Virus record (IMG/VR): IMGVR_UViG_3300002123_000001 | Source of the DNA: a virus | Direction: 5' to 3' (one strand) | Length of the DNA: 64,000 nucleotides | Position numbers and translations under genes: made by a program | Notes under the pieces: generated by a model | What the model saw: the letters and a program-made list of their open reading frames with translations, nothing else | Database searches by the model: none | What the model was told of the DNA's origin: nothing | In this document: in pieces, positions 1-58,810 of the stretch | Layout of the letters: each line of letters begins with the position of its first letter | Numbering within the stretch: position 1 is the first letter of the stretch

Positions 1-45
1 TCGGTGGGCGACGTGCTGTTGCACGTCGCCATCTCCTTCAAGTGA
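1..45 (+). CDS. 3' end of a plus-strand gene that starts left of the window (partial)
   Basis: Frame 1 reads ...SVGDVLLHVAISFK then TGA at 43-45; GC-rich third positions; followed by hairpins. Confidence 0.45.
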   Translation, partial: SVGDVLLHVAISFK

Positions 46-80
46 TGACGGGGCCTTCGGGCCCAGGCCCGTAAGGGGCC
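7..80 (+). terminator. Three tandem GC hairpins at the end of the partial gene
   Basis: GGCGACGTGC-TGTT-GCACGTCGCC (7-30), GGGCC-TTCG-GGCCC (51-64), GGCCC-GTAAG-GGGCC (66-80); no U tract. Confidence 0.5.
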
Positions 81-83
81 CTT

Positions 84-130
84 CACTAGCCACAAATATC
101 CTAGCCGATTAGGCATAAAAGCTGTGGAGG
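84..130 (+). promoter_or_regulatory. P1, cassette promoter motif
   Basis: CTAGCC 86-91, CACAAA 91-96, 17-nt spacer, CATAAA 114-119, 4 nt, GTGGAGG 124-130, ATG 137; same layout at 7 other plus-strand sites. Confidence 0.6.
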
Positions 131-136
131 TAGAAC

Positions 137-607
137 ATGAAGACGAGGCAATGGGCACACCCATTCGATAGGTCTCTGAAGGATGAGGAGGTACAGGCGC
201 TGGGGAAGGACCCCAATGCAACGTACGGGGTACAACCGTCGTCCGACGCCATCGGCGGGTACTTCGGCATGGGGTGGGTGTCGTACTTCAAAGATCACGA
301 GACGGGCGAGGTGTACGGGGTGCACTGCTCAGACGGCGTATACGGTGGTAAAGGGTCCCACCACCCCAAGCACGAGGTGTGGATGCACACCGCCTTCCAT
401 ACCATCTCCGAGGTGATGTGCGAGAAGGGAGGCAGCGATCTCTCCATGCTGGATTGGAACCTGATGTCCAACTACACGAAGATGTGGATGGACGTAGGTA
501 AGGCGGCCGGCGAAGCCCCTGGCGTGGTGGGCACATGCAAAGGCATGGAGGTCGTGGTCAAGGAGGGCATTCCACCGGTGGTTGGTGAGCCACCAAGCAT
601 AGCGTGA
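137..607 (+). CDS. hypothetical protein, 156 aa
   Basis: ATG 6 nt after GGAGG; own promoter motif and own tandem hairpins; no family recognised. Confidence 0.75.
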   Translation: MKTRQWAHPFDRSLKDEEVQALGKDPNATYGVQPSSDAIGGYFGMGWVSYFKDHETGEVYGVHCSDGVYGGKGSHHPKHEVWMHTAFHTISEVMCEKGGSDLSMLDWNLMSNYTKMWMDVGKAAGEAPGVVGTCKGMEVVVKEGIPPVVGEPPSIA

Positions 608-612
608 TTACG

Positions 613-646
613 GCGCCCTGAAGGGCGCAGGGGGCTTCAAGCCCCC
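613..646 (+). terminator. Tandem hairpins after 137..607
   Basis: GCGCCC-TGAA-GGGCGC (613-628) and GGGGGC-TTCAA-GCCCCC (630-646); no U tract. Confidence 0.55.
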
Positions 647-648
647 GT

Positions 649-701
649 CACTATCCACAAAAACGTGGTGGAATAGGGCATAAAAACAATGAAGAAGGGA
701 C
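649..701 (+). promoter_or_regulatory. P2, cassette promoter motif (long-leader variant)
   Basis: CTATCC 651-656, CACAAA 656-661, N17, CATAAA 679-684, then ATGAAGAAGGGAC variant box; real SD GGAGG 735-739. Confidence 0.55.
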
Positions 702-745
702 ACGACCTTCCTTAGAAAACCAACAACGTTCTGTGGAGGAACACC

Positions 746-1129
746 ATGTACATCCGTAAGATCGAGAACCGGTTCGAGACCAGCACCAACGGCAAGGACT
801 ACACCTCGTTGAACGAGCCGCTGCCGGCGAAGATCATGCGCTGCTTCGAGAAGACTGATGCGCGGACAGTCTACTGCGCGTCCAGCTTCTTGGGAGTGAA
901 CGAGGCCCACATGATCACCCCCCTCGATGGGAAAACGTCAGCATGGGCCACCGAAGCGCTTCCGGCGCGCACCCCCACCCGGGTGCGGTACGTGCAGGTT
1001 CGCAGCCACGCGGACACCGAGGCCGAGGTGTGGTGGCTGTGGGCCGGGTTCACCTTCGTGTGGATCTGGGTGCTGCTCATCTACGCGGCAGCGGCCGCTG
1101 GCAGCGCCAAGAGCGACACCGCGACGTGA
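746..1129 (+). CDS. hypothetical C-terminally membrane-anchored protein, 127 aa
   Basis: SD GTGGAGGAACACC 733-745 then ATG; C-terminal hydrophobic helix WWLWAGFTFVWIWVLLIYAAAAA. Confidence 0.75.
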   Translation: MYIRKIENRFETSTNGKDYTSLNEPLPAKIMRCFEKTDARTVYCASSFLGVNEAHMITPLDGKTSAWATEALPARTPTRVRYVQVRSHADTEAEVWWLWAGFTFVWIWVLLIYAAAAAGSAKSDTAT

Positions 1130-1152
1130 ACAACGACACCCGCAAGGGTGCA

Positions 1153-1166
1153 GCCCCTTCGGGGGC
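1153..1166 (+). terminator. Hairpin after 746..1129
   Basis: GCCCC-TTCG-GGGGC. Confidence 0.5.
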
Positions 1167-1172
1167 CGTTCG

Positions 1173-1231
1173 CTACCCCCATTTCAACGCCTGCAAAAGT
1201 GGGGGTAAAGAAGAGATAACAACTGTGGAGG
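1173..1231 (+). promoter_or_regulatory. P7, orphan cassette promoter with no ORF behind it
   Basis: TGCAAA 1192-1197, N17, GATAAC 1215-1220, 4 nt, GTGGAGG 1225-1231; no ATG/GTG at SD distance. Confidence 0.5.
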
Positions 1232-1269
1232 GAAAAGCCCGCGTTGTTGGTCCCCCCGGCTTGAGTCGG

Positions 1270-1304
1270 CTGCCCAGGTGTTCCTCCACCTCCTTCCTGG
1301 GCAG
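1270..1304. other. Hairpin CTGCCCAGG-N17-CCTGGGCAG whose loop carries CCTCCACCTCC
   Basis: Perfect 9-bp inverted repeat; 1277-1289 is the exact reverse complement of 733-745. Confidence 0.8.
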
Positions 1305-1311
1305 TCGGCTC

Positions 1312-1329
1312 GGCCCCTATCTAAGGGCC
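1312..1329. terminator. GC hairpin between convergent units
   Basis: GGCCC-CTATCTAA-GGGCC, 5 nt from stop of 1335..1715. Confidence 0.45.
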
Positions 1330-1334
1330 TTCTT

Positions 1335-1715
1335 CTAGCCTTCGATTTCGGTGAAGGCCAAGCCGGTGATTGCACAGACGTATGGGGCTCCAGTCGCCTC
1401 TCGGTACTGAACCAGCATGTTCTCCGTGATGGCCTGATACTCTCCCCAGTTCAGGTCCTTTGGGACTGCGCATCCATACTGCCGCAGCCCCCATAAACTC
1501 ACGGCGCAGTTTGCCTGCAGGAAGTAGAACCCGATGACGGCCATCCCCTTCCCACTACTCCAGGTGACACCTGAGAAACGCTCGTGCCCGCACCCACCAC
1601 ATAGCCACGTTGAGATGCCGTTGGGGTTGGTGAAGCAGAACTCACGGCGCCTGCAACATGGGCAGGGGTCAAGAGGTAGCCGAGGCTCTCTTTGCTCCAG
1701 GTCTGGACTGGGCAC
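1335..1715 (-). CDS. zinc-ribbon-like small protein, 126 aa
   Basis: GTG 1715 with AAGGAG upstream; CPCC...CGGC motif; good codon bias from there to stop; overlaps upstream gene by 47 nt. Confidence 0.55.
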   Translation of the reverse strand: MPSPDLEQREPRLPLDPCPCCRRREFCFTNPNGISTWLCGGCGHERFSGVTWSSGKGMAVIGFYFLQANCAVSLWGLRQYGCAVPKDLNWGEYQAITENMLVQYREATGAPYVCAITGLAFTEIEG

Positions 1716-1956
1716 GTGCCCCCTTCTCCTTGTTGACGAAGCCGCGGATGGCCTCGACGGCGTGCTTCTTGTGCTCGTAGTACCTGCCGAACCCATCCTT
1801 CCCGGAGGCGTGCTTGGTCTGGTACGCAATCCAGCGAGCGAGGAGGGGCTTTGGCATCATGCGCTCCTCCAAGTCGGCGACCACCTGCAGAGAGTAGGTG
1901 ACGTACCACATACCATCGCGCAGGTCAGGAGTCAGAGTCAAGCTTCCGATCTTCAC
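1669..1956 (-). CDS. hypothetical protein, 95 aa
   Basis: ATG ORF; N-terminal 80 aa protein-like. Confidence 0.6.
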   Translation of the reverse strand: MKIGSLTLTPDLRDGMWYVTYSLQVVADLEERMMPKPLLARWIAYQTKHASGKDGFGRYYEHKKHAVEAIRGFVNKEKGARAQSRPGAKRASATS

Positions 1957-2146
1957 GATACTTCTCCTTCAGTTCGTAGTACCTCACTGACGCGGAGTAC
2001 CCGCGGTACAGCAAGAAGCTGATGCTTGCGCCATTGACCGCGTAGATAAACCACGGCGGACTCGTAGTAGAAAGCACGATAGTCATTATCGCAATAAGCC
2101 CAGCAACAACGTACAGGACTAGCATGTTGATCAGTTCAACGAGCAT
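1925..2146 (-). CDS. small membrane protein, 73 aa, two hydrophobic helices
   Basis: Internal ATG 2146 just after stop of upstream gene; LINMLVLYVVAGLIAIMTIVL and WFIYAVNGASISFLLY. Confidence 0.6.
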   Translation of the reverse strand: MLVELINMLVLYVVAGLIAIMTIVLSTTSPPWFIYAVNGASISFLLYRGYSASVRYYELKEKYREDRKLDSDS

Positions 2147-2160
2147 ATGACCCCGTACCG

Positions 2161-2370
2161 TCACCCGGACCTCCGGATACTTTCCTTCACTGCGAAGTAC
2201 GCCGACACCACGCTGGGAGCCATGACCAGAAGGCACGCAACCACCACGGTCTTCTGGACACTCGAGGCTTTGGAAGTAATGAGCACACAGATCACCGCAA
2301 TCGATGCTACGAACCCAATGACCATGGTGGCCAAGTTCACCCACATCTCGTCTCTATCCGCCCTGTTCAT
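2161..2370 (-). CDS. small membrane protein, 69 aa, two hydrophobic helices
   Basis: WVNLATMVIGFVASIAVICVLI and VVVACLLVMAPSVVSAYFAV; ATGA overlap with upstream gene. Confidence 0.65.
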   Translation of the reverse strand: MNRADRDEMWVNLATMVIGFVASIAVICVLITSKASSVQKTVVVACLLVMAPSVVSAYFAVKESIRRSG

Positions 2371-2612
2371 CAGTTCTTCCTCTCCTTAGCCGGATTGTAG
2401 TTGCTGAAGACCACCCCGAACATCTTGTACATGTGCCGAGCTCGTTCGATAGAGCGTTGGAGCTCTTCGAGCCCCTCTTGTCGGGCTATAGCCTGTCGTA
2501 TCGCATCACTCACCAAGAGGATGGCGGCCAGGTGCTCAGCTGCATCACCCTCGGCGTTGACGATGACGTCGAGCAGCTCCTGAGCCAAGCTCGTGATTCG
2601 GTTGTTGGCCAC
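2370..2612 (-). CDS. hypothetical helical protein, 80 aa
   Basis: GTG 2612 five nt after AAGGAGG; longer ATG start would run through promoter P5. Confidence 0.55.
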   Translation of the reverse strand: MANNRITSLAQELLDVIVNAEGDAAEHLAAILLVSDAIRQAIARQEGLEELQRSIERARHMYKMFGVVFSNYNPAKERKN

Positions 2613-2636
2613 AACCACCTCCTTTGCCGCTGTTGT

Positions 2637-2681
2637 TATACCGCAAAGTAGCGAGTACTTGTGGCATAAAAGAAGTGGAGG
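2637..2681 (+). promoter_or_regulatory. P5, cassette promoter motif
   Basis: TATACC 2637-2642, CGCAAA 2642-2647, N17, CATAAA 2665-2670, 4 nt, GTGGAGG 2675-2681. Confidence 0.6.
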
Positions 2682-2688
2682 AACAACC

Positions 2689-2880
2689 ATGAGCAACAAG
2701 GCAAGAGAAGAAGCTAAGTTGGTGGATGCTGTCTTCGAAGACGGCACATGGATAGCGCGCGTCAGTCACCGCCAAGTGCGGGAGTACCTGGTGGGGATCG
2801 CCTCCACCCGGGAAGAGGCGATCAGAAACGCCTTCGCGCGCGTCACCATGCGCGCGCGAGGAGCGCAGCAGGGCTGCTGA
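2689..2880 (+). CDS. hypothetical protein, 63 aa
   Basis: ATG 2689 after GTGGAGGAACAACC; lone plus-strand gene between minus-strand genes. Confidence 0.65.
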   Translation: MSNKAREEAKLVDAVFEDGTWIARVSHRQVREYLVGIASTREEAIRNAFARVTMRARGAQQGC

Positions 2881-2884
2881 ATGG

Positions 2885-2917
2885 CGCCGCGCAAGCGGTG
2901 CGGCCCCACCCGGGGCC
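2885..2917. terminator. Tandem hairpins between convergent genes
   Basis: CGCCGC-GCAA-GCGGTG (2885-2900) and GGCCCC-ACCC-GGGGCC (2902-2917). Confidence 0.55.
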
Positions 2918-2933
2918 TTCAGCTAGCCCCACT

Positions 2934-3407
2934 TCACTCTTCTTCGAGTGACTCGAGAGAGACCATCTCTACAGAGTATTCGCTGTAGTAGGAGTTGTCG
3001 CACCCATCCTGCTTCTTGCGACGCTCCGCTGGTCTTCCCGCCATCTTGATGGCCCGTGGGGTGAACAGCTTCACCTTCTCACGAACGTAATCGGGATCGA
3101 GGTCCAGCTGCTCGCACGCGCACAGGAAGCTGGTGAGCTGCATCCCCTCTTGCTCACGCTGTATCCACCAAGGATGCCCTGGCTTCTCCTCGAACAGCCA
3201 CGTGTAGGCGTTGTTGGCCAGCTCGAGCTGCTCGAGACGGCTGCTAGAGCGGTAGAGCACCCAGTCGTGCGCAGCGCGACGAATGAGCTCAAGAAGCAGA
3301 GCTCGTGCGTGTTCAGCCTCGTAAGCTGCATCCAGCGGCTCTGGTCCCCATGAGGACTCATCTACCGCTGCGTCTTGTTCCTCTGCCAGCTCTTCCTGCG
3401 ACGGCAC
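2934..3407 (-). CDS. hypothetical protein (minimum extent; frame stays open and protein-like up to 3587)
   Basis: First canonical start after upstream stop is GTG 3407; helical C-terminal domain, acidic tail. Confidence 0.5.
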   Translation of the reverse strand: MPSQEELAEEQDAAVDESSWGPEPLDAAYEAEHARALLLELIRRAAHDWVLYRSSSRLEQLELANNAYTWLFEEKPGHPWWIQREQEGMQLTSFLCACEQLDLDPDYVREKVKLFTPRAIKMAGRPAERRKKQDGCDNSYYSEYSVEMVSLESLEEE

Positions 3408-9456: not shown

Positions 9457-10221
9457 CTACTTGTACTGCTCGTACTTCTTGATGATGCTGCCCTTCAAGC
9501 GGGACACCTTCGAAGGGCTCAAGCCCAATCGCTGAGCAAGCACCCCAGTGCTGGTGACCGGCATCCCGCCCTGTTGCGGGTACATCAAGTCGTACAGCCG
9601 CTGCTCTTCTGGCCCCAGGCTATGCCGGAGCAACCCAATCACCTCAGACTCGCGCTGCGCCGCGATCGGTACTGGGTCGCTCTCGAAGGGAGTTGATAGA
9701 ACGTCCCTCCGCTGCATCCCCTGAATCTGCTGTATCCTACGCGCCGTGAGCTGCCTTTGCTGCGGCAGCCCAATGTTCATGCGCTGGGCAATCTGCTCGT
9801 GTGAGGGCTCAGCCCCAAGCTCGTCTGACAGCTCCTCTTGTGCAGCCTGAATCTTGCCGATGTAGCCCGCTGGCGTCTCAGCAATGCGCGCCATGTTCTG
9901 ACGCTTCTTGTTCGTGCGGCTCACCCGGCGCAGCTGATTGTGCAAGTGCGTGCTGAACGTGGCCCCACGGTCTGGGTCGTACGTCTTCAACGCGTCGATG
10001 GCCAGATTCATCATGTTCCCACGAAGCCCCACCGCACTGGTCTGCGGCGCCTTGTGGACGTTCTGATGGTGCCTGAACACCGGCTCGAACTGCTGTAGCA
10101 CGGACTTCGTGTTGTCTGGACTTGGGTCCGACTTCCAACGCATCACCAGCTCGTGCTCCGCCTTCGTCCTATCGGCGGCCACCTTCTCCCTCTCTTGGAG
10201 ATATGCGTCGATCGGGTTCAT
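9457..10221 (-). CDS. sigma-70 family RNA polymerase sigma factor, group-3-like, 254 aa
   Basis: Region 2 (YDPDRGATFSTHLHNQLRRVSR), region 3 (LGAEPSHEQIAQRMNI), region 4.2 HTH (STGVLAQRLGLSPSKVSRLKGSIIKKY); ATG 10221. Confidence 0.8.
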   Translation of the reverse strand: MNPIDAYLQEREKVAADRTKAEHELVMRWKSDPSPDNTKSVLQQFEPVFRHHQNVHKAPQTSAVGLRGNMMNLAIDALKTYDPDRGATFSTHLHNQLRRVSRTNKKRQNMARIAETPAGYIGKIQAAQEELSDELGAEPSHEQIAQRMNIGLPQQRQLTARRIQQIQGMQRRDVLSTPFESDPVPIAAQRESEVIGLLRHSLGPEEQRLYDLMYPQQGGMPVTSTGVLAQRLGLSPSKVSRLKGSIIKKYEQYK

Positions 10222-10247
10222 GCTGCTCCGCTTACGAGCGCGCTTCT

Positions 10248-10754
10248 TCAGTGCTCGAGGAGGCGCTTGGTCCGGCTCAGGAGTGTCGGTGCTTCCACCG
10301 GTCTCCGGTTGGCGTTCGCCTGCGGCATCGCATGGCTTGCTTCGTAGTCGCCGGTTGCGGCATGGCTTAGCTGCCCTGCCAGCAGCTTGCGGTCCGCCTC
10401 CTGCGACGGCTTCTTGCCGTCGAAGTGCCGGTTCAGGAACTCCTCGCGCCCTCGTCGGAACTCCTCCAGAACGACGTTCGAGTGGTGTACCGCCGTCCCC
10501 GTCGGGTCGCTCGGCTTCATGTCCGGGTCCCCCCACAGTGCGTCGATGTTTCCTGACGCCCTCCCCTCCGGCTTGGGGTACTGGTCCGGGTTGGTTCCCA
10601 CGGTGCTTCGCCCGTTGTCTCCCGGTGCCTCCACCTCGGCTTGCTTCAGGAAGGCGTACAACTTGTCCGCGTCCTCCTGCGGGTCCGTGAGGGGAAGGCA
10701 GTCGCTCATGCTGCGTCCGTTGTATGCCATGCACGTAGCGTACCACGACCCCAC
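10248..10754 (-). CDS. hypothetical protein, 168 aa, directly upstream of sigma
   Basis: ATG ORF with better composition than the overlapping extension of the sigma ORF. Confidence 0.65.
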   Translation of the reverse strand: MGSWYATCMAYNGRSMSDCLPLTDPQEDADKLYAFLKQAEVEAPGDNGRSTVGTNPDQYPKPEGRASGNIDALWGDPDMKPSDPTGTAVHHSNVVLEEFRRGREEFLNRHFDGKKPSQEADRKLLAGQLSHAATGDYEASHAMPQANANRRPVEAPTLLSRTKRLLEH

Positions 10755-24809: not shown

Positions 24810-24856
24810 CACTATCCGAAAACGTTGAATGTTTTCGGGCATAAAAGCTGTGGAGG
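24810..24856 (+). promoter_or_regulatory. P3, cassette promoter motif
   Basis: CTATCC 24812-24817, CGAAAA 24817-24822, N17, CATAAA 24840-24845, 4 nt, GTGGAGG 24850-24856. Confidence 0.6.
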
Positions 24857-24865
24857 AACAACAGA

Positions 24866-24973
24866 ATGGAACTGATCTTCGCAGTGGAGACCGCTGTAAA
24901 GCTGGTCGCGTTTGCCCTTCACCTCGCCGCGGACGCGCGGGAGAAGAAGCCCGCCGCCAAGGCGGGCGCATAG
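24866..24973 (+). CDS. 35-aa hydrophobic peptide (MELIFAVETAVKLVAFALHLAADAREKKPAAKAGA)
   Basis: Below the ORF-track cutoff; ATG 9 nt after GGAGG; own promoter and hairpins. Confidence 0.5.
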   Translation: MELIFAVETAVKLVAFALHLAADAREKKPAAKAGA

Positions 24974-24987: not shown

Positions 24988-25034
24988 CTATCCCTGCAAA
25001 ACCGAGTAGATACGCGGCATAAGAGCTATGGAAG
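24988..25034 (+). promoter_or_regulatory. P4, cassette promoter motif (long-leader variant)
   Basis: CTATCC 24988-24993, TGCAAA 24995-25000, N17, CATAAG 25018-25023, 4 nt, ATGGAAG 25028-25034. Confidence 0.55.
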
Positions 25035-25845: not shown

Positions 25846-25851
25846 ACAGGC

Positions 25852-25908
25852 TGAAAACCTCACGTTGAACAGGGGATAAAACCTCTGGAGGGAGACGCGC
25901 CGTCTCCC
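25852..25908 (+). promoter_or_regulatory. P8, cassette promoter motif plus 5' leader hairpin
   Basis: TGAAAA 25852-25857, N17, GATAAA 25875-25880, 4 nt, CTGGAGG 25885-25891; GGGAGACG-CGC-CGTCTCCC 25890-25908. Confidence 0.55.
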
Positions 25909-41481: not shown

Positions 41482-41534
41482 CACAGTTTCCCACCGGAAC
41501 CCGGCATAAGAGAATCGAGGGAAGAATAAGGAGG
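41482..41534 (+). promoter_or_regulatory. P6, weaker cassette promoter motif plus SD
   Basis: CACAGT 41482-41487, N17, CATAAG 41505-41510; AAGGAGG 41528-41534. Confidence 0.45.
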
Positions 41535-57688: not shown

Positions 57689-58810
57689 TCAGTTGCTGAC
57701 GACCTGCGGGAACTTCAGCCCCTGGTCGACTCGGTTGTTCACCGCGCCCAGAGCCTCCTCATCCACCGGGATGAAGCTGGCACGGAGACCCTCGTTGTCG
57801 TGCTCGGTGGCGTCCGCCGAGTAGAGCTCGACCTTCCGGACCGCGGCGATGTTGATCACCGACATGGCGATGTCCTCCCACGACTGGAAGGTGATCATGT
57901 TCGCCACCTTGTCGATGTAGAACTTCGTCTGGTTCAGGACGTAGAACTTGCCGAAGAACTCGGGCGACGTGAAGAAGTACATGTTGCCTGGGCGCAAGAT
58001 GTCTGTCTTCACCGTGCGGACGAACGGGCGCCCCAGCAGGGTGTTGTACTTGTACCCGTCGACCGTGGTCTCCGACTGGATGCGGTCGCCCTGGTCCTCC
58101 ACCGTCCAAGACAGCTGGTCGTCCCAGTCCACTTCGGTTACGAGCCACCGCTCACAGCGGAGCCGGTTGCCGTCCAGGAGCTTGAACCCCGAGACGATGT
58201 CCCGCCTCTGCAGCGGACGAACCACGGCGTCATCCGTGAGAGCCACGCGCGCCAGCTCGCCCTTGCGAACGCTGAACTCCACGAGGCCGCCCGCGCCGAT
58301 CGAGGTGGCGTTGAGAATCGGCGCCGCAGCGACGCCGTTCGCTTCCGCCTGAAGCGCCTGGCACGCCGCCTCGATGTGGAACGTGAACTCCCGGTCCTCG
58401 ATCTCCTGGATGTCCTTCACCGAGTTCTCCTCGATGACCTTGGTGATGGGCATATCGTAGGCGAGGAGCTCCTGCTCGGTCTTCTGGAAGACCTCGCTGG
58501 AGATCGTGAAGAACGCCACCTCGGCACGCGGCCCGCGGATGAACCGCGCCGTGGGCTGGCCACGGAAGGAAAGCGCCATCGCCCGGCTCCGGGGCTCGAC
58601 GTTCACGATCTTGACCAGAGTGTCGTGCCGCGTGCTGACCTGGCAGTCTGCACGCGTCACCTGCTCCGGCGGGACCAGCTTGCGCACGTAGCAGACCTCA
58701 CGGAGCTTGTCGCGGATGTACGACCCTCCGAACTGCGCCAGCTTCTCCTTGCCACCCGGCTCACTCAGCCGAGTGTTGAACAGCTCATTGACCTGTCGGC
58801 CGCTTGCCAT
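57689..58810 (-). CDS. major capsid protein (HK97-fold-like), 373 aa
   Basis: Size, position after scaffold- and decoration-like genes, strong SD GAGGAG, C-terminal LLGRPFV...MYFFTSPEFFGKFYVL...ITFQSWEDIAMSV pattern. Confidence 0.6.
   Translation of the reverse strand: MASGRQVNELFNTRLSEPGGKEKLAQFGGSYIRDKLREVCYVRKLVPPEQVTRADCQVSTRHDTLVKIVNVEPRSRAMALSFRGQPTARFIRGPRAEVAFFTISSEVFQKTEQELLAYDMPITKVIEENSVKDIQEIEDREFTFHIEAACQALQAEANGVAAAPILNATSIGAGGLVEFSVRKGELARVALTDDAVVRPLQRRDIVSGFKLLDGNRLRCERWLVTEVDWDDQLSWTVEDQGDRIQSETTVDGYKYNTLLGRPFVRTVKTDILRPGNMYFFTSPEFFGKFYVLNQTKFYIDKVANMITFQSWEDIAMSVINIAAVRKVELYSADATEHDNEGLRASFIPVDEEALGAVNNRVDQGLKFPQVVSN

Follow-up and report, generated by a model that had tools for sequence, protein, structure and literature searches.

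The 64,000-nt DNA stretch analysed here (the window; IMG/VR virus record IMGVR_UViG_3300002123_000001) belongs to an uncultured phage and carries, next to gene 746..1129, a promoter-terminator cassette that lacks a gene. We propose that this orphan unit may encode an RNA of ~110 nt on the plus strand, whose hairpin loop would pair with a leader, including the Shine-Dalgarno (SD) sequence, that is common to its sister cassettes. Judged from sequence motifs and from modelled folds and duplexes, this RNA is a credible candidate, to which we assign a probability of roughly 0.4. The broader proposal, that the RNA switches off translation of a whole set of orphan early genes and is itself the cargo of a mobile cassette, is more tentative. 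The plus strand is favoured because the family promoter and terminator lie on it, its fold is 9 kcal/mol better, the complementary motif sits in an open loop, and no coding signal is present.

The orphan unit has the layout of its neighbours

The unit occupies the right-hand end of a 3.1-kb plus-strand island (L001 2440-5593, or window −1815 to 1338; window position = L001 position − 4255), beyond which a minus-strand operon converges on the island. The plus-strand units of this phage have in common a promoter-like consensus, CYGCAA-18 nt-CATAAA-4 nt-(G/A)TGGAGG. A strict version of the pattern, CYRMAA-17/18-[CG]ATAA[ACG], occurs at 8 sites, all on the plus strand, against 0.2 expected, and the ten promoter-like motifs in total are likewise all on the plus strand, in two islands amid a genome coded on the minus strand. 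For P7, the motif at the orphan unit, a position matrix derived from the other nine cassettes gives a held-out score of 39.1 bits; with the same matrix, the best site outside the family reaches 15.2 bits over 136 kb of strand. Scanning positions 1-3000 for the E. coli sigma-70 consensus gave no site; the family motif is a non-sigma-70 consensus, which might be recognised by the sigma factor of the host or by a sigma-like protein that the phage itself encodes (9457..10746). Both the promoter activity and the terminator activity of the motifs are predictions.

In the family terminator, a tail of TTC-NN-CTAGCC or CTATCC comes after a single GC hairpin or a pair of them; this arrangement is found at eight sites (TTCNNCTAGCC pattern), all on the plus strand and each 3′ of a plus-strand cassette gene. 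In the orphan unit, the hairpin at 1312-1329 followed by TTCTTCT is the sole plus-strand terminator-like site in a terminator scan of 1-3000. The unit thus runs from promoter through ~80 nt of cargo to terminator and, with a family motif at both ends, the interval 1191-1340 is by its motifs a complete cassette, with the same layout as its neighbours but gene-less. A perfect 8-bp inverted repeat, TACCCCCA / TGGGGGTA (1174-1181 / 1200-1207), flanks the −35-like box of P7 and may serve as an operator or form a hairpin in the RNA; in the relative L007, a C1176 to T change in its left arm preserves pairing, as G-U, on the plus strand only.

The predicted plus-strand hairpin exposes an open loop

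Between promoter and terminator, the unit is predicted to fold into a hairpin with a 16-bp stem, of which nine pairs (1270-1278 / 1296-1304) form a perfect core. Specifically, the candidate RNA has a minimum free energy of −53 to −55 kcal/mol (z = −4.0), and the whole 116-nt stretch gives z = −4.0 on the plus strand versus −2.8 on the minus strand. The main hairpin alone folds at −31.1 kcal/mol (z = −6.0) on the plus strand. Its minus-strand counterpart reaches −21.8 kcal/mol (z = −2.5), with A-C mismatches in place of the G-U pairs and a loop that is partly self-paired. On the plus strand, the predicted probability of being unpaired is 0.72 at loop position 1280 and at least 0.86 at each of the remaining 16. 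Of all hairpins in 68 kb whose loop contains CCTCC, that of the unit is the strongest, all others having stems of at most 9 bp.

An earlier note on this DNA had described, at this site, a full promoter geometry, a GTGGAGG box followed by a short TTG reading frame and neither ATG nor GTG, a perfect 9-bp stem with a 17-nt loop, and a second hairpin followed by TTCTTCT. Each of these observations holds: P7 is a full family member, the TTG frame has six codons (1244-1264), the second hairpin matches the family terminator, and the stem in fact extends to 16 bp on the plus strand, the strand on which the hairpin with its unpaired anti-leader loop is most stable.

The same hairpin read on the minus strand could instead serve the convergent operon of the 126-aa gene, in whose 3′ untranslated region the loop AAGGAGGUGGAGGAACA would act as an SD decoy that binds 30S subunits or a RegB-like GGAG nuclease, stabilising or processing the mRNA. 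The region is probably transcribed on the minus strand, and the loop there contains two GGAG motifs and a perfect AAGGAGGUG. However, the hairpin is 9 kcal/mol weaker on that strand with its loop partly self-paired, and the family promoter and terminator on the plus strand are left unexplained. We know of no precedent for an SD decoy in a 3′ untranslated region, and we give this reading very little weight.

No gathering-level match was obtained in the window with any of the 4227 Rfam families. A permissive scan of 1000-1500 returned only RF02278 on the plus strand, scoring 13 bits where the family requires 50 for gathering (E = 7), and RF01080, an unrelated pseudoknot model, on the minus strand. 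We rejected a repeated palindromic element, as the stem sequence is found nowhere else, and a target-site duplication, as the 7-nt direct repeat GTCGGCT around the stem is accounted for by the G-U extension of the stem itself.

The loop complements a leader shared by several cassettes

As the earlier note stated, positions 1277-1289 (GGTGTTCCTCCAC) are the exact reverse complement of 733-745 (GTGGAGGAACACC), directly 5′ of ATG 746. The loop proper holds just 11 of these 13 bases, since 1277-1278 belong to the stem. The first 11 loop bases (UGUUCCUCCAC) are the exact complement of a shared leader, GUGGAGGAACA, and the leader 11-mer GTGGAGGAACA also heads cassettes B (L001 2826), G (2675) and H (24850), with 10 of 11 nt retained in cassette A (L001 2469). 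Since the 11-mer is common to B, E (the cassette of gene 746), G and H, and nearly complete in A, gene 746 is not a unique partner.

Modelled duplexes of the loop alone follow this pattern, with −21.4 kcal/mol for leaders B and G, −20.0 for H, −19.7 for E, −17.9 for A and −13.7 for D, compared with −8 kcal/mol for leaders C and H2 (AAGGAGA type) and a mean of −9.8 kcal/mol over 40 minus-strand gene starts. The unit would present an accessible seed of 11-13 nt, forming duplexes of −18 to −21 kcal/mol with each of the leaders A, B, E, G and H. The earlier note had proposed a trans-acting anti-SD RNA directed at gene 746; the small-RNA anatomy, the open loop and the strong pairing (−17.9 to −21.4 kcal/mol for B, G, H, E and A) agree with it, but the pairing is not exclusive to E and the partner is the family leader GUGGAGGAACA rather than gene 746 alone.

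The proposed course of events is as follows. The transcript would have its 5′ end at or close to G1225 and its 3′ end past the 1312-1329 hairpin, for a length of ~110 nt, and its 16-bp hairpin would expose the 17-nt unpaired loop to the leaders. In vivo, the loop would pair with the SD-containing leader GUGGAGGAACA of B, E, G and H, and over 10 of 11 nt with that of A, covering the SD and blocking 30S binding, such that translation of the whole orphan-gene set, and not of gene 746 alone, would fall together. A second segment of the RNA, 1242-1252, might form a further helix, beside the SD in the case of E or across codons 1-4 in that of B. Shifted by one base from the E-complementary segment, 1243-1252 complements codons 1-4 of cassette B, for which the order of the two segments would suit a clamp of two helices over the initiation region.

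A match of this length is not rare by itself: for an exact 13-mer shared by the 216-nt region and both strands of 68 kb of DNA, BLAST gives E = 0.18. However, the best match connects the hairpin loop with a cassette leader, five of the top matches are cassette leaders, and the unit carries the sole inverted copy of the leader motif. We estimate the chance origin of the 11-mer family motif within 205 nt at ~1e-4, which implies that the inverted 11-mer is present because selection has maintained it or because recombination left it behind.

The position of the only 13/13 match, which lies in the nearest gene, on the same strand and 540 nt upstream, would also suit an action in cis, either by folding back on the SD of gene 746 once read-through of its terminator has placed the loop in the 3′ untranslated region of its mRNA, like fbi of hok mRNA, or as a short plus-strand RNA that is antisense over its full length to the 3′ untranslated region of the minus-strand operon and would destabilise it, like lambda OOP on cII. 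The unit also complements two further segments of the E leader, 10 nt and 8 nt long (p = 0.002-0.006 for two or more extra segments). Furthermore, the minus-strand operon probably transcribes through the unit, as the best terminator-like structure of that strand is the one at 1170-1130 (−23.4 kcal/mol, z = −3.2, followed by UCGUUGU). Against fold-back, gene 746 has its own tandem terminator (1137-1166), and the E-specific match is down to 11 nt in L007. We discounted the 8-mer as a specific signal because it is the family terminator tail against a purine-rich start region, which leaves one 10-mer of modest statistical weight; that 10-mer is 12 nt long in L007 versus 10 nt in the source, and it is out of order for a continuous helix. 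An OOP-type action requires no anti-SD loop. We regard action in cis as unlikely.

The unit lacks coding signal

Between the GTGGAGG box and 1278 there is no ATG or GTG, and the TTG mini-ORF (open reading frame) at 1244..1264 is probably not translated. A three-periodic Markov coding model, trained on 19 long genes of the window, gave −10 bits for a 70-aa plus-strand ORF spanning the unit and −12 to −28 bits for minus-strand ORFs of 34, 38 and 63 codons, whereas real frames average about +10 bits per 105 nt and +20 bits per 210 nt. No ORF in 1130-1335 appears coding. Consistent with a non-coding unit, the features by which a small RNA is recognised, namely its own promoter and terminator and the lack of a coding frame, are present here at the level of motifs.

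A protein could be made from the 70-aa ORF, which three annotation pipelines call and which is open in L007, or from a 34-aa minus-strand ORF starting at CTG 1277, which a very strong SD (AAGGAGGTGGAGG) precedes at a good spacing of five nt. However, coding scores are negative in every frame, and the 70-aa ORF has no homologue but itself among 1.8 billion representative proteins, where it occurs in two sequence variants only. It would cross two terminator hairpins and a promoter motif, three of its four substitutions relative to L007 in 1170-1192 are non-synonymous, and its NTGA start/stop overlap with gene 746 is expected by chance three times in four. On the minus strand, CTG starts are rare, and the SD would be in the loop and the start codon in the stem. 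We reject the 70-aa ORF as a gene on its negative score and lack of homologues, and hold a protein product of either strand to be highly improbable.

Cassettes come and go between relatives

Protein searches with the flanking genes and the 70-aa ORF identified two relatives, L006 and L007, and nothing else. L006 shows 50% identity in the 126-aa gene and, at the place expected for the orphan unit, carries another gene instead. Cassette G is missing from L006, in which two minus-strand genes lie ~55 nt apart (L006 1295-1352), and the −35-like box of cassette G is inside sequence common with L006 (CTTTGCGGTATAAC on the minus strand). The absence of cassette G and the different gene at the orphan site indicate that cassettes come and go. 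Cassette H drives just a ~35-codon ORF, and very small cargos are therefore possible in cassettes. The cassette proteins have no assigned PHROG function.

L007 (3.7 kb) carries the same array at 89.8% identity overall. Cassette genes D and E are 60-85% identical in 60-nt bins, while from 1137 to its end L007 is ~99-100% identical, the neighbouring minus-strand gene included. Between the source and L007, the leader 11-mer is unchanged in A, B and E, while the stretch that separates it from the ATG differs for A and E. The L007 homologue of gene 746 (L007 2722-3234) has a 2-nt deletion between SD and ATG and a 1-nt deletion in codon 8; these break the ATG frame, and the gene caller places the start 131 nt upstream (170 aa). 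This homologue is either a pseudogene or an assembly error.

Scans of IMG/VR with 127-aa and 349-aa proteins, an alignment of a 298-aa protein, the promoter-plus-SD pattern and the loop 17-mer found nothing related; the 18 matches to the 17-mer were in unrelated contexts, mostly AT-rich, with no flanking hairpin. A JGI metagenome scan with a 19-nt loop pattern gave 14 unrelated matches and did not return the source contig, the collection being incomplete for this purpose, and GTDB genome scans with the protein alignment and the promoter pattern gave chance matches alone. In sample ERZ27254843, contig L003 ends at 1281 and L044 starts at 1298, with only the loop core 1282-1297 missing; the gap may reflect loop variants, even an inverted loop, or a drop in coverage at the hairpin.

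The array is similar to the PeSLs (promoter-early stem-loops) of T4-type phages, as judged from its repeated promoter, stem-loop and SD motif, its association with ORFans (orphan genes) and its indels at motifs. In T4-type phages, recombination between the composite promoter/terminator motifs of PeSLs shuffles orphan genes (PMC2839356). The orphan unit might thus be a functionless by-product of such shuffling: recombination between composite terminator-promoter-SD junctions would leave a gene-less terminal junction, the hairpins would merely stop transcription at a convergent boundary, and the 13-mer would be a scrap of leader captured in reverse. The cassettes fit the published description, with promoter, stem-loop and SD, ORFan genes and plastic regions (PMC2839356). 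P7 is the last unit of the array, both ends of which stop directly after CTAGCC; L006 lacks cassette G at the corresponding site; and the source and L007 form a mosaic with a breakpoint at the end of gene 746. Contigs L004 and L005 (1.5 kb, from other samples) both end at ~1368, which suggests a strain breakpoint there.

The minus strand around the 13-mer also loosely resembles the G leader, at 23 of 27 positions with two gaps. However, homology beyond the 13-mer is not significant (p = 0.19), so that a decayed inverted copy of a leader, which the earlier note had raised as its alternative, is possible yet unsupported and leaves the hairpin unexplained. We rejected a minus-strand cassette, given no promoter motif on that strand and no extended homology. 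Neutral scrap would not be expected precisely in the loop of the strongest hairpin of the region, nor would a neutral origin predict a fold 9 kcal/mol better on the strand of the promoter and terminator, and the unit has 80 nt of cargo between its junctions and is not a bare junction. A functionless by-product is the main rival reading, which we hold to be somewhat less probable than the RNA. A shuffling origin and an RNA function are compatible, an inverted leader scrap being a plausible start for an antisense RNA.

Points that weigh against a regulatory RNA

Several observations count against the proposed RNA, the case for which is built from sequence motifs, a predicted fold and complementarity. 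With regard to expression, GATAAC differs from CATAAA at two positions, P7 is without the GG that precedes the −10-like hexamer in all nine others of the family, and the terminator is weak (5-bp stem, −10 kcal/mol, z = −1.95, tail UUCUUCU). The RNA would share its promoter type with its targets and hence be co-expressed with them. With regard to pairing, the 5′ end of the RNA can pair with its own loop over 9 bp at −15.2 kcal/mol, and self-masking is therefore possible. Transcripts of the short-leader cassettes probably begin inside GTGGAGG, as judged from the −10 spacing, which would cut the pairing to ~9 nt. Many purine-rich coding sites reach comparable duplex energies in a whole-window scan, indicating that energy alone cannot single out targets.

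With regard to conservation, L007 matches the source at every position of 1190-1352 (100%), yet its flanks also reach ~99% identity, so that the conservation of the unit reflects a recent shared block and not measurable selection, with no covariation. The gene-746 leader of L007 keeps 11 of 13 nt and reads GTGGAGGAACA-ATG. Finally, PeSL-like shuffling alone predicts function-less orphan promoter/terminator junctions.

Setting in the phage genome

The window lies within a metagenomic contig of ~191 kb (JGI 3300025322 Ga0209641_10000005), which was also assembled independently from SRR3990168 and ENA samples. The phage has ~60% GC, with most genes on the minus strand, and the contig gave no match against 50,697 phage records. 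Eight of the ten largest proteins scanned are without a functionally informative Pfam or PHROG match, including an 884-aa protein that matches DUF5661 alone, a domain that carries no functional assignment; we therefore treat the phage as very divergent. Coordinates of the unit, the cassettes and the flanking features are listed in Table 1.

Three further observations concern the promoter family and the array. A weaker promoter candidate lies at 41505. A 310-nt gap in the array (L001 3430-3740, window −825 to −515) begins with a family terminator tail, TCATCACTAGCC, and has no plus-strand gene; by eye, it contains a minus-strand ORF of ~57 codons with CxxC motifs, also ending in CTAG. At 682-712, on the minus strand, the E leader hairpin and the complement of the −10 box (CATTGTTTTT) resemble an intrinsic terminator, and the cassette junction may therefore halt transcription both ways.

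Table 1. Positions of the orphan unit, its predicted partners and other features (window numbering unless L001 is given)
Feature	Position	Strand	Remark
Candidate non-coding RNA, ~110 nt	1225..1336	+	start inferred from promoter geometry, end from terminator
−35-like hexamer CTGCAA (P7)	1191..1196	+	family motif
−10-like hexamer GATAAC	1215..1220	+	18 nt past −35-like hexamer, 4 nt before GTGGAGG
GTGGAGG box	1225-1231	+	
5′ segment GUGGAGGGAA, SD-like box	1225..1234	+	can pair with own loop or with CCCCCC at 1253-1258
Second complementary segment CGTTGTTGGT	1242..1251	+	complement of E leader 719-728
Mini-ORF TTG TTG GTC CCC CCG GCT TGA (LLVPPA)	1244..1264	+	six codons, SD spacing 12 nt, stop at hairpin base
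Main hairpin	1263..1311	+	16-bp stem 1263-1278 / 1296-1311 with two G-U pairs, 17-nt loop
Loop	1279..1295	+	DNA TGTTCCTCCACCTCCTT; RNA UGUUCCUCCACCUCCUU, two CCUCC anti-SD cores
Family terminator of the unit	1312..1340	+	GGCCC-N8-GGGCC (hairpin 1312-1329), then TTCTTCTAGCC
70-aa ORF	1126..1338	+	called by three annotation pipelines; start overlaps stop of gene 746
126-aa gene convergent with the unit	1335..1715	−	stop codon overlaps CTAG of terminator tail
ACCAACAACG in cassette E leader	719..728	+	complement of 1242-1251; 12-nt match in L007
Leader/SD box GTGGAGGAACACC of cassette E (gene 746..1129)	733..745	+	directly 5′ of ATG 746
Tandem terminator hairpins of gene 746..1129	1137-1150 and 1153-1166 (feature 1137..1178)	+	then family tail CGTTCGCTACCC
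Cassette G	2640-2930	+	promoter, 63-aa gene 2689..2880, terminator
Cassette G leader GTGGAGGAACA (gene 2689..2880)	2675..2685	+	11-nt loop partner
Cassette H leader GTGGAGGAACA (~35-aa ORF from 24866)	24850..24860	+	11-nt loop partner
Cassette H ORF, ~35 codons (MELIFAVETAVKLV...)	24866-24973	+	ends before next terminator/promoter junction
Promoter-like motifs in the window	90-130, 655-700, 1191-1231, 2641-2681, 24816-24856, 24994-25034, 25851-25891	+	
Promoter-like motifs outside the window	L001 2436-2475, 2793-2832, 3678-3717	+	
429-aa protein	9457-10746	−	sigma-70 region 3 match
373-aa protein	57689-58810	−	weak major-head-protein match

Comparison with known systems

Few phage small RNAs are known, and most of them come from prophages (PMC4933390). 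The targets of phage small RNAs are rarely evident from sequence alone, whereas here the DNA itself shows a candidate RNA with its promoter and terminator, together with no fewer than five candidate targets. If the proposal is true, mobile orphan genes would be under coordinated translational control via a shared leader, and promoter/terminator cassettes could carry regulatory RNAs and move them between phages; the unusual points would be a mobile cassette family as targets and a cassette as RNA carrier. If it is wrong, the locus would still illustrate cleanly how PeSL-like modules are shuffled in a phage that does not belong to the T4 group, and would still show gene callers putting a 70-aa protein on regulatory DNA.

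The cassettes are most like the PeSL cassettes of T4-type phages, in which a terminator stem-loop, a promoter and an SD lie between small orphan genes in plastic regions (Arbiol et al. 2010, PMC2839356; PMC4122927), and in both systems indels between relatives occur at the motifs. Unlike the T4-type phages, the present phage is very divergent, has ~60% GC and is no relative of T4. Its promoter is CYGCAA-18-CATAAA and not the E. coli sigma-70 consensus, its stem-loops are upstream of the −35 and in tandem pairs, and one of its cassettes bears a cargo that is structured and non-coding, a kind with no described example among PeSLs.

In its proposed action, by analogy, the unit resembles c4 RNA and the small RNAs of the RF02278 type, and it belongs to neither family. 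The c4 RNA of phages P1/P7 blocks a ribosome-binding site via loop sequences (PMC12197685). Like the RNA proposed here, c4 RNA (RF01695) is a phage-encoded, non-overlapping antisense RNA with the promoter class of its target, and its loops pair near the ribosome-binding site of a target in the same genome. However, the unit has no Rfam sequence or structure match, and c4 RNA is processed from its target operon and controls one gene (icd/ant) for immunity, whereas the proposed RNA is a separate unit that would act on a leader family. RF02278 is a toxic small RNA family of Betaproteobacteria, with expression confirmed in Burkholderia (PMC4603805). RNAs of this type likewise are short and terminated, with a CCUCC-type loop able to pair with the SD of several mRNAs; the unit differs in its phage origin, its weak match (13 bits versus 50) and a loop that complements 11 nt of a specific leader beyond the SD core. 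C-rich anti-SD loops are also present in RsaE/RoxS and S. aureus RNAIII.

Lambda OOP is, as the candidate is predicted to be, a short transcript that has a promoter and a terminator of its own and that converges on, and abuts, the 3′ end of an opposite-strand operon. OOP overlaps the coding end of cII in full antisense and acts through RNase III, with no anti-SD loop and no trans target. In its proposed outcome, the unit would resemble RegA and RegB of T4, which bring about a coordinated shut-off of many early mRNAs at ribosome-binding regions, RegB by cutting within GGAG. RegA and RegB are proteins, whereas the effector proposed here is an RNA; if the proposal is true, it would be the RNA counterpart of T4 RegA/RegB.

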